From the NCBI RefSeq assembly GCF_003334785.1, contig NZ_QOWV01000002.1: DNA of 64,000 nt, one strand, 5' to 3'. This document shows positions 2,916-35,213 of this stretch, in pieces. Both the position numbers and the translations under genes were made by a program. The DNA comes from Escherichia coli. GTDB taxonomy: Bacteria; Pseudomonadota; Gammaproteobacteria; Enterobacterales; Enterobacteriaceae. The notes below the pieces were generated by a model. The model worked only from the letters and a program-made list of their open reading frames with translations. It searched no databases and had not been told where the DNA came from. Within the stretch, counting starts at the first letter, position 1, and every line of letters begins with the position of its first letter.

Positions 2916-3100
2916 AGTGGCTCATTCACCGACTTATGTCAGCCCCTTCGGGACGTGCTACATAAAATACGAATGACGCACAACAAGGTGCCTGCCGTCC
3001 AACTTCTGATATCAGCGTAGCTATATCAACCATCGGGCGAAACGTCGAGTTAGGCACCGCCTTATTCCATAACAAAGCCGGGTAATTCCCGGCTTTGTTG
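2916..3100 (+). ncRNA. glmY: GlmY small RNA (formerly tke1/sroF), regulator of glmS via GlmZ
   Basis: Location between purL and glrK; transcript predicted from sigma54 promoter to hairpin aaagccggg/cccggcttt (3075-3097) plus U-rich tail; about 185 nt, consistent with known GlmY; ends not mapped. Confidence 0.75.
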
Positions 3101-31673: not shown

Positions 31674-31674
31674 C

Positions 31675-31857
<183 letters not shown>

Positions 31858-31919
31858 ACAGGTACAAACGCCACGATAAAAAAATGGCACTGAAGGTTAA
31901 ATACCCGACTAAATCAGTC

Positions 31920-32033: not shown

Positions 32034-32522
32034 ATGAGACTGACATCTAAAGGGCGCTATGCCGTGACCGCAATGCTTGACGTTGCGCTCAACTCTGAAG
32101 CGGGCCCGGTACCGTTGGCTGATATTTCCGAACGTCAGGGAATTTCCCTTTCTTATCTGGAACAACTGTTTTCCCGTCTGCGTAAAAATGGTCTGGTTTC
32201 CAGCGTACGTGGACCAGGCGGTGGTTATCTGTTAGGCAAAGATGCCAGCAGCATCGCCGTTGGCGAAGTAATTAGCGCCGTTGACGAATCTGTAGATGCC
32301 ACCCGTTGTCAGGGTAAAGGCGGCTGCCAGGGCGGCGATAAATGCCTGACCCACGCGCTGTGGCGTGATTTGAGCGACCGTCTCACCGGTTTTCTCAACA
32401 ACATTACTTTAGGCGAACTGGTTAATAACCAGGAAGTGCTGGATGTGTCTGGTCGTCAGCATACTCACGACGCGCCACGCACCCGCACACAAGACGCGAT
32501 CGACGTTAAGTTACGCGCTTAA
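32034..32522 (+). CDS. iscR: Fe-S cluster assembly transcriptional regulator IscR
   Basis: 162-aa ORF, Rrf2-family with three-Cys cluster ligands. Confidence 0.97.
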
Positions 32523-32633
32523 TAAAAAGAATTCAGAATCAGGCCGGAGTGCTAAATACTCCGTAAACACGGTCGTACATCCAGCCGGTAGCCTGATTCC
32601 TTGCATTGAGTGATGTACGGAGTTTATAGAGCA

Positions 32634-33848
32634 ATGAAATTACCGATTTATCTCGACTACTCCGCAACCACGCCGGTGGACCCGCGTGTTGCCGAGAAAA
32701 TGATGCAGTTTATGACGATGGACGGAACCTTTGGTAACCCGGCCTCCCGTTCTCACCGTTTCGGCTGGCAGGCTGAAGAAGCGGTAGATATCGCCCGTAA
32801 TCAGATTGCCGATCTGGTCGGCGCTGATCCGCGTGAAATCGTCTTTACCTCTGGTGCAACCGAATCTGACAACCTGGCGATCAAAGGTGCAGCCAACTTT
32901 TATCAGAAAAAAGGCAAGCACATCATCACCAGCAAAACCGAACACAAAGCGGTACTGGATACCTGCCGTCAGCTGGAGCGCGAAGGTTTTGAAGTCACCT
33001 ACCTGGCACCGCAGCGTAACGGCATTATCGACCTGAAAGAACTTGAAGCAGCGATGCGTGACGACACCATCCTCGTGTCCATCATGCACGTAAATAACGA
33101 AATCGGCGTGGTGCAGGATATCGCGGCTATCGGCGAAATGTGCCGTGCTCGTGGCATTATCTATCACGTTGATGCAACCCAGAGCGTGGGTAAACTGCCT
33201 ATCGACCTGAGCCAGTTGAAAGTTGACCTGATGTCTTTCTCCGGTCACAAAATCTATGGCCCGAAAGGTATCGGTGCGCTGTATGTACGTCGTAAACCGC
33301 GCGTACGCATCGAAGCGCAAATGCACGGCGGCGGTCACGAGCGCGGTATGCGTTCCGGCACTCTGCCTGTTCACCAGATCGTCGGAATGGGCGAGGCCTA
33401 TCGCATCGCAAAAGAAGAGATGGCGACCGAGATGGAACGTCTGCGCGGCCTGCGTAACCGTCTGTGGAACGGCATCAAAGATATCGAAGAAGTTTACCTG
33501 AACGGTGACCTGGAACACGGTGCGCCGAACATTCTCAACGTCAGCTTCAACTACGTTGAAGGTGAGTCGCTGATTATGGCGCTGAAAGACCTCGCAGTTT
33601 CTTCAGGTTCCGCCTGTACGTCAGCAAGCCTCGAACCGTCCTACGTGCTGCGCGCGCTGGGGCTGAACGACGAGCTGGCACATAGCTCTATCCGTTTCTC
33701 TTTAGGTCGTTTTACTACTGAAGAAGAGATCGACTACACCATCGAGTTAGTTCGTAAATCCATCGGTCGTCTGCGTGACCTTTCTCCGCTGTGGGAAATG
33801 TACAAGCAGGGCGTGGATCTGAACAGCATCGAATGGGCTCATCATTAA
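32634..33848 (+). CDS. iscS: Cysteine desulfurase IscS
   Basis: ORF 32610..33848; start at [14 protein letters not shown] (404 aa); PLP site [10 protein letters not shown] and active-site SSGSACTS. Confidence 0.97.
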
Positions 33849-34697: not shown

Positions 34698-35213
34698 ATG
34701 GATTACTTCACCCTCTTTGGCTTGCCTGCCCGCTATCAACTCGATACCCAGGCGCTGAGCCTGCGTTTTCAGGATCTACAACGTCAGTATCATCCTGATA
34801 AATTCGCCAGCGGAAGCCAGGCGGAACAACTCGCCGCCGTACAGCAATCTGCAACCATTAACCAGGCCTGGCAAACGCTGCGTCATCCGTTAATGCGCGC
34901 GGAATATTTGCTTTCTTTGCACGGCTTTGATCTCGCCAGCGAGCAGCATACTGTGCGCGACACCGCGTTCCTGATGGAACAGTTGGAGCTGCGCGAAGAG
35001 CTGGACGAGATCGAACAGGCGAAAGATGAAGCGCGGCTGGAAAGCTTTATCAAACGTGTGAAAAAGATGTTTGATACCCGCCATCAGTTGATGGTTGAAC
35101 AGTTAGACAACGAGACGTGGGACGCGGCGGCGGATACCGTGCGTAAGCTGCGTTTTCTCGATAAACTGCGAAGCAGTGCCGAACAACTCGAAGAAAAACT
35201 GCTCGATTTTTAA
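34698..35213 (+). CDS. hscB: Co-chaperone HscB (J-domain)
   Basis: 171-aa ORF with HPD motif. Confidence 0.95.

Follow-up and report, generated by a model that had tools for sequence, protein, structure and literature searches.

How can one operon mRNA be divided into parts of unequal stability, and where in its sequence would the division be written? The isc operon of Escherichia coli raises this question in the 64,000 nucleotides of DNA analysed here, which we call the window: its genes follow one another on the plus strand in the order iscR, iscS, iscU, iscA, hscB and hscA, and the first two are separated by a non-coding spacer of 111 nucleotides. The stop codon TAA of iscR occupies positions 32520-32522 and is followed by a second TAA in frame; the ATG of iscS starts at 32634, and the spacer spans exactly positions 32523-32633. 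The RefSeq annotation agrees on both flanking genes, and places the element between a stop codon and a start codon on the mRNA strand. An earlier note, made from the sequence, had proposed that complementary segments of this spacer form stem-loops just upstream of the Shine-Dalgarno sequence of iscS, and that the differential stability of iscR and iscSUA depends on the region through the small RNA RyhB. The coordinates that it gave are exact, and the two strings that it quoted are both present, ccggagtgctaaatactccg at 32544-32563 and gtacatccagccgg at 32575-32588.

The spacer has been met before. When the region is scanned against all Rfam families, the spacer is matched by RF01517, the iscR stability element, whose gathering score is 40 bits. 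It is identical, base for base, to the spacer of E. coli K-12 MG1655, and, when the window is aligned with that genome, not one base differs from the iscR promoter through iscR and the spacer to the start of iscS (100% identity). The 1-kb alignment shows a single difference: the gap between trmJ and iscR, which holds a REP/BIME array (31674-31890), is shorter in the window by one repeat unit of 91 nt. The RyhB experiments behind RF01517 were reportedly carried out on the MG1655 spacer by Desnoyers, Morissette, Prevost and Masse (EMBO J 28:1551, 2009); judging by the identity, the spacer of the window is the very sequence used in published K-12 experiments. Interval 32523-32633 is a curated and experimentally characterised cis-regulatory RNA, real and functional, and already known.

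Our main conclusion, which we hold with high confidence, is that the iscR-iscS intercistronic region of the iscRSUA mRNA is a known cis-regulatory RNA made of two modules, with a proposed mechanism under iron limitation. Table 1 gives the features on which the argument relies, together with the other structured RNAs of the window, in which there are no tRNA genes.

Table 1. Coordinates of the features of the iscR-iscS spacer, of its flanking genes and of other RNA features; positions are those of the window, except in the last line.
Feature	Position	Strand	Basis or remark
iscR CDS, 162 aa; cistron that the element would protect	32034..32522	+	ORF list; RefSeq annotation of identical MG1655/other E. 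coli sequence
iscS CDS, 404 aa; opens the part that is degraded upon RyhB pairing	32634..33848	+	ORF list; RefSeq iscS = 1215 nt
RF01517 iscRS, 'iscR stability element', full match	32523..32632	+	Rfam; 138.1 bits, model 1-110 of 110, E about 1e-37
A-rich single-stranded linker UAAAAAGAAUUCA; Rfam helix P1 has its 5' strand here (32530-34)	32523..32535	+	
Stability-element core: 64-nt Y-shaped fold, basal stem P2 and two hairpins	32536..32599	+	folding, comparison
P2, 5' arm GAAUCAGGC	32536..32544	+	pairs with 32591-32599
Hairpin 1 (P3): CGGAGU / ACUCCG, loop GCUAAAU	32545..32563	+	inverted-repeat scan, covariation
Hairpin 2 (P4): AC-CGG / CCGGU, 12-nt loop UCGUACAUCCAG	32567..32589	+	pair probability, conservation
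P2, 3' arm GCCUGAUUC; the protected iscR fragment may end here	32591..32599	+	inverted-repeat scan, covariation
P5, the weak third hairpin in Rfam	32602..32617	+	-2.9 kcal/mol alone; probability ~0.15 in context
Predicted RyhB pairing region: three blocks, ~29 nt, carrying Shine-Dalgarno and AUG	32608..32636	+	hybridisation and accessibility
iscS Shine-Dalgarno GGAG	32619..32622	+	read from sequence, 11 nt upstream of ATG
naRNA4 (CssrE)	31735-31806		Rfam; 72 bits
naRNA4 (CssrE), below gathering score	31826-31889		Rfam; 35 bits
GlmY	2916-3063	+	Rfam
RyfA	40007-40310	-	Rfam
IS128	40442-40650	-	Rfam
SroE	53479-53570	+	Rfam
RF02783-matching loci of other species	L017:1896-2078, L018, L011, L016, L020, L022, L015, L024		Rfam

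The first module is a Y-shaped structure. Its base is helix P2, in DNA GAATCAGGC (32536-44) against GCCTGATTC (32591-99), with nine complementary positions out of nine, and this helix encloses two hairpins; the arms of the first are, in DNA, CGGAGT (32545-50) and ACTCCG (32558-63), six base pairs around a loop of seven nucleotides. The folding energy of the 64-nt core is -25.6 kcal/mol (z = -4.67), a value that none of 200 shuffles equals, and that of the whole 111-nt RNA is -31.5 kcal/mol (z = -3.08), equalled by three of 200 dinucleotide shuffles. In a context of 311 nucleotides that includes the coding flanks, P2, P3 and the G-C core of P4 have pair probabilities between 0.95 and 1.0; within hairpin 2, the three G-C pairs reach 0.98-1.0 and the two outer pairs about 0.7. 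The stem-loop potential claimed upstream of the Shine-Dalgarno sequence is well founded, given the z score of the core and the compensatory changes in P2 and hairpin 1 described below, but the choice of segments was only partly right: ccggagtgctaaatactccg does hold the CGGAGT/ACTCCG repeat, while gtacatccagccgg is mostly loop, plus the 3' arm of hairpin 2 (CGG...CCG). A part of the latter string, GTACATC, is complementary to GATGTAC at 32612-32619. The pair of hairpin 1 and part of this loop pairing had been seen; the main stem, the nine base pairs of P2, had been missed.

Two motifs of hairpin 1 occur a second time nearby: CGGAGU, its 5' arm, is also found in the Shine-Dalgarno region of iscS (32618-23), and ACUCCG, its 3' arm, in codons 9-11 of iscS (32659-64). 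Of these, the CGGAGU at the Shine-Dalgarno region and the ACUCCG in the coding sequence pair with each other in the extended fold. Directly 5' of P2, the A-rich tract AAUAAAAAGAAUUCA (32521-32535) contains four consecutive A-R-N triplets, and its A-richness is retained in relatives; this tract could be a candidate site for the distal face of Hfq.

In order to compare this structure across Enterobacterales, IscR was scanned for in one genome per species, which gave 80 loci, and every iscR-iscS spacer was extracted. The two modules differ in evolutionary reach. The 3' block, ...UGAAGUGAUGUACGGAGYUUAAGAGCA-AUG, is kept in most Enterobacterales, including Serratia, Dickeya, Pectobacterium, Tatumella, Pantoea, Edwardsiella and Budvicia; among the spacers extracted, the structure GAAUCAGGC...GCCUGAUUC is limited to Enterobacteriaceae proper, namely Escherichia, Citrobacter, Pluralibacter, Enterobacter species, Pseudocitrobacter, Superficieibacter, Cedecea, Siccibacter, Shimwellia, Mangrovibacter and a Klebsiella species. 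Of the 16 loci with the P2 structure, 13 reach the gathering score of RF01517; loci L009, L013 and L025 fall below it, as does L021.

Applied to 21 Enterobacteriaceae sequences, RNAalifold finds P2 with two compensatory changes, one from A-U to G-C and one from G-C to A-U, and a single cell of the 189 is broken. The MAFFT alignment of these 21 sequences fails to align the inner hairpins of the distant genera; covariation was therefore counted on a subset of 14 sequences, and the conservation of the architecture was judged from the fold of each sequence taken separately. Most of the 21 sequences yield the Y shape when folded separately, despite differences in the sequence and length of hairpin 1. 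On the 14-sequence alignment, 92.6% of the cells of the Rfam structure are paired, versus 31-46% when the partners are slid, and five pairs have changed on both sides where 1.4 would be expected, a count that none of 500 shuffles reaches. Taken helix by helix, P2 has 100% of its cells paired among 13 distinct sequences, and P3 has 94.9%, with three of its six pairs changed on both sides. The three G-C pairs of P4 are invariant, hence uninformative for covariation, and the comparison is equally uninformative for P5, which is also invariant.

The plus strand is more stable than the minus strand in 18 of the 21 sequences, by a mean of -3.6 kcal/mol, an advantage that is due to G-U pairs. Since it is the plus strand that folds better, the selected molecule is the mRNA.

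Other lineages have stable structures of their own at this place. The long spacers of Erwinia, Pantoea and Providencia contain unrelated stable hairpins after iscR, with z = -4.9 in Erwinia psidii and z = -3.0 in Pantoea stewartii, and those of Rahnella and Rouxiella have terminator-like hairpins followed by U-runs. Among the spacers compared, the short-spacer lineages are without such hairpins after iscR. This distribution hints that separate lineages found independent solutions for uncoupling iscR from iscSUA.

We now turn to variation within E. coli. With blastn (word size 11, E <= 1), 5425 of the 5426 complete genomes have the spacer, each at a single place. Sorted by identity to the allele of the window, 2169 genomes have at least 99%, 1242 have 95-99%, 1547 have 90-95% and 467 have 80-90%; among the strains sampled, the IscR and IscS encoded on either side do not differ in protein sequence. 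The differences concentrate in hairpin 1 (32545-32563), of which there are at least three alleles: CGGAGUGCUAAAUACUCCG in the window, CGGGGCGUAUCGCGCUCCG in other strains, and the intermediate CGGAGUGUUUAGCGCUCCG. Pairing is kept in each of them, through changes from U-A to C-G, from G-U to G-C and from A-U to G-U, and P2 shows one further change within the species, from A-U to G-U. These changes are a case of compensatory evolution inside one species. The allele of hairpin 1 that differs from K-12 is also carried by E. albertii.

A variant of another kind is found in strain N96 of E. coli (L082:472-600), where 129 nucleotides are inserted directly after the iscR stop codon, upstream of the stability element. 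The insertion is present in 493 of the 5426 genomes, and also in the spacer of Citrobacter werkmanii (L002); it extends the 3' region of iscR and leaves the stability element untouched. It belongs to a dispersed repeat, found at 7 places in the median genome with 60-80% identity, which we take to resemble the ERIC/IRU element.

The second module is the translation initiation region of iscS, and here the question is whether RyhB can pair with it. The RyhB sequence used was verified: it matches RF00057 at 83 bits, lies between yhhY and yhhX, and agrees at every base (100% identity) with a site that 5425 E. coli genomes contain. Scores combine windowed hybridisation with opening energy; an unrestricted duplex between full RyhB and 178 nucleotides was discarded, as it produced a physically meaningless pairing of 88 nucleotides with large loops. 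The predicted pairing comes in three blocks. RyhB 40-47 (CAUUGCUC) would form eight perfect base pairs with 32629-36 (GAGCAAUG, which includes the AUG), RyhB 53-57 five base pairs with the Shine-Dalgarno region at 32619-23, and RyhB 61-68 would pair with 32608-15. The hybridisation energy is -22.9 kcal/mol, for a net value of about -9 to -10.5 kcal/mol with opening costs.

Corrected for accessibility, iscS ranks first among the initiation regions of the 50 gene-like open reading frames of the window. Ranked by raw hybridisation over the 64 kb, the iscS site is outside the top 15, with many more stable duplexes involving the core of RyhB; the site is thus distinctive only when accessibility is taken into account and the search is restricted to start codons. 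In the 21 Enterobacteriaceae sequences, the RyhB block is invariant save for two substitutions that preserve the duplex: a C replaces the U that faces G53, and a G replaces an A that faces a U. The core of RyhB is thus predicted to pair with the translation initiation region of iscS, as is expected of a RyhB target. The third-best predicted site among the 50 starts, at 35164-35179 and -7.9 kcal/mol, lies just upstream of the hscA open reading frame; RyhB is described as a repressor of hscBA-fdx-iscX in a 2025 paper (PMC12533949).

The earlier note had staked its reading on a pairing with RyhB, and the duplex predicted across the Shine-Dalgarno sequence and start codon provides one. It had also placed the structure and the action of RyhB in the same region: both do lie in the spacer, but RyhB is predicted on the single-stranded 3' end and not on the hairpins. 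The hairpins would rather act as a passive barrier, with RyhB pairing elsewhere in the spacer.

What is known of the mechanism comes from published work: RyhB pairs with the segment that separates iscR from iscS, and the downstream iscSUA part is degraded; a strong structure in the spacer is behind the RyhB-dependent accumulation of the iscR fragment; and the stable 5' part that encodes IscR is still translated, which favours suf expression (PMC12533949, PMC11572966, PMC7038943, PMC11475020). The fragment is credited to decay that depends on RyhB and RNase E (PMC12533949, PMC11572966). All four papers cite Desnoyers et al. 2009; for the details of the probed structure and of the mapped RyhB pairing, we rely on such secondary citations and on our own prediction. 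Together with the RF01517 match and the identity to MG1655, these statements uphold the claim that RyhB acts through the spacer on the stability of iscR relative to iscSUA. The spacer 32523-32633 is without any terminator-like or promoter-like site, which is consistent with read-through co-transcription followed by differential decay.

The proposed sequence of events is the following. Module 1 (32536-32599) is a very stable Y-shaped structure just 3' of the iscR stop codon, and module 2 (about 32608-32636), the translation initiation region of iscS, would pair over its Shine-Dalgarno sequence and AUG with RyhB, itself controlled by Fur. Under iron limitation, RyhB and Hfq would block the translation of iscS, and the unprotected iscSUA part would undergo cleavage and degradation dependent on RNase E. 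Decay running back toward iscR would halt at module 1: nucleases probably stall at the base of P2, which would put the 3' end of the iscR fragment near 32599. A stable mRNA with iscR as its only cistron would be left, from which apo-IscR would continue to be made and could activate suf. That the element is required for the RyhB-dependent iscR-only transcript is taken from the literature, and presumably applies to the window through its identity to MG1655; repression at iscS dependent on Hfq and RNase E would likewise carry over from published work (PMC12533949, PMC11572966, PMC11475020). The 2025 paper, which comes from the same laboratory, describes the expression of IscS as roughly constant across iron levels in the wild type (PMC12533949), and the physiological output must therefore be subtler than 'iscS off, iscR on'.

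Could the structure have a second role, or another role altogether, through contacts with the iscS start? In DNA form, the inverted-repeat scan shows CGTACATC (32574-81), in the loop of hairpin 2, to be complementary to GATGTACG (32612-19). This complementarity is present in 12 of 13 close relatives and shows no covariation, because the partner at 32612-19 is invariant; Superficieibacter, Cedecea, Shimwellia, the Klebsiella species and Mangrovibacter, all of which keep P2, lack the complementarity, and in single sequences it has p ~0.06 against shuffles. It is unlikely, on this record, that in the clade of Escherichia, Citrobacter and Enterobacter the loop UCGUACAUCCAG forms a pseudoknot of eight base pairs with GAUGUACG (32612-19), next to the Shine-Dalgarno sequence of iscS on its 5' side. 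Were it to form, it would physically tie the stability element to the region of ribosome binding and RyhB pairing; it could tune the basal translation of iscS, or compete with block 3 of RyhB (32608-15), and the 'passive barrier' would double as an active translational module.

A stronger version makes the structure mainly a mask over the Shine-Dalgarno sequence of iscS, by way of helix P1, of the loop of hairpin 2 paired with GAUGUACG, or of a thermometer like the Yersinia IscS-1 ICR; we judge it quite improbable. Each of the three routes has something to recommend it. In the isolated 111 nucleotides, P1 pairs AAUUC with GAGUU and overlaps the Shine-Dalgarno sequence; but P1 is paired in 73.8% of the cells of the 14-sequence alignment, with zero compensatory changes, and its pair probability falls to 0 in the 311-nt context, once flanks are included. 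Helix P1 of RF01517 is doubtful, being without comparative support and having probability 0 in a longer context, and it was rejected as a mask of the Shine-Dalgarno sequence for want of comparative and ensemble support. The loop offers eight perfect base pairs, CGUACAUC (32574-81) with the same segment at -12.4 kcal/mol, and is kept in 12 of 13 close relatives whereas hairpin 1 varies; against this stand the missing covariation, the loss in genera that keep P2 and the shuffle value given above. As for the thermometer, Rfam family RF02783 spans the same junction in Yersinia, Serratia, Photorhabdus and Dickeya, but it is unmatched in the window even at E <= 10, and a thermometer of the Yersinia type was rejected for the window on that ground. 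An anti-Shine-Dalgarno pairing of the 3' arm of hairpin 1, ACUCCGUA with UACGGAGU, was also discarded: its ensemble probability is 0, and the arm is unconserved across genera.

The reading that places the function of the structure in decay has, for its part, to be distinguished from two more general devices. The first is the REP or BIME element, which would make the spacer an ordinary repeat that stabilises upstream mRNA generically. The literature does use the label REP for the spacer structure (PMC7038943); like REP elements, the spacer lies outside genes, is an imperfect palindrome and can fold into a stable stem-loop in the mRNA, and the arms of P2 share seven nucleotides (GCCTGAT / ATCAGGC) with the REP units upstream of iscR. 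However, the spacer is single-copy in all but one of the 5426 genomes, where the ERIC-like repeat, used as a control in the same blastn mode, has a median of 7 copies, and no extra genomic copies of the 64-nt core are found at blastn sensitivity. The REP core (GCCKGATGCGRCG and its complement) is absent from the spacer at up to three mismatches, whereas nine other sites of the window lie within one mismatch of it; the spacer has no match to Rfam naRNA4/REP, and the two such matches are at 31735-31889; and the arms of the stem come in reverse order relative to the REP stem. It is thus very unlikely that the spacer is an ordinary REP: membership was rejected on copy number and consensus, and the element works in a REP-like way outside that repeat family.

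The second device is an intrinsic terminator or attenuator after iscR, by which the difference between iscR and iscS would arise from transcription and not from decay. A stable G+C-rich stem does lie directly after the stop codon, and the equivalent spacers of Rahnella and Rouxiella have, as noted, terminator-like hairpins with U-runs. But the terminator search of 32523-32633 returns no such site: the stem is followed by CUUGCAUUG and not by a U-tract, a Y-shaped three-way junction is dissimilar to a terminator hairpin, and the literature attributes the iscR fragment to decay dependent on RyhB and RNase E (PMC12533949, PMC11572966). A Rho-independent terminator was rejected, the combination of a G+C-rich hairpin and a U-tract being absent, and we give very little credence to this reading.

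Finally, that the hairpins are chance complementarity with no structural role is next to impossible: short inverted repeats are common, and the minus strand of the window allele folds about equally well, but the stability of the core beats all of its 200 shuffles, the compensatory changes beat 500 of 500 shuffles and every slid control, the fold is kept despite sequence divergence, with a strand asymmetry toward the mRNA, and covariation already refutes this reading as far as computation can.

The iscR-iscS element is a textbook case of one operon mRNA split into parts of unequal stability. In iron starvation, IscR persists while the mRNA of the Isc machinery is removed, and Fe-S assembly shifts toward Suf, a shift that affects aminoglycoside tolerance (PMC11572966). 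To this picture, the present analysis adds that the element is not a true REP, that P1 is doubtful, and that hairpin 1 is polymorphic with compensation; it adds further that the structured module is found only in Enterobacteriaceae proper, and the block of RyhB pairing and translation start is far more widely conserved.

How does the element of the window compare with known systems? With RF01517, the locus, the sequence, the full-length match to the model and the proposed function are all the same; nothing substantial separates it from the literature on that family, apart from two refinements, that P1 is unsupported and that the label 'REP' is not borne out. With the REP/BIME 3' stabilisers, such as that of malE-malF or the REPs at 31674-31890, it shares an extragenic palindromic stem-loop in or after a cistron that shields upstream mRNA from 3'-to-5' decay and so produces differential expression within an operon. 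Unlike them, it is single-copy, lacks the REP consensus and folds into a three-way junction in the shape of a Y, and its effect is linked to cleavage that a small RNA triggers downstream. With the IscS-1 ICR thermometer of RF02783, it has in common only the junction and the initiation block of iscS, GAUGUACGGAG...AGAGCAAUG: the spacer of that family is short, about 50 nucleotides, and without P2, P3 and P4, its model spans the 3' coding end of iscR, and it matches loci of Yersinia, Serratia, Photorhabdus, Dickeya, Hafnia and Brenneria, but not those of Enterobacteriaceae proper. The closest parallels in regulation by small RNAs are Spot 42 on galETKM, SgrS on manXYZ and NarS on nirBDC-cysG, in which a small RNA acts at an internal cistron, the downstream part decays and the upstream part is retained; unlike in those operons, the iscR fragment is set by a dedicated structured barrier, and not by a terminator or by translation alone (PMC7038943).
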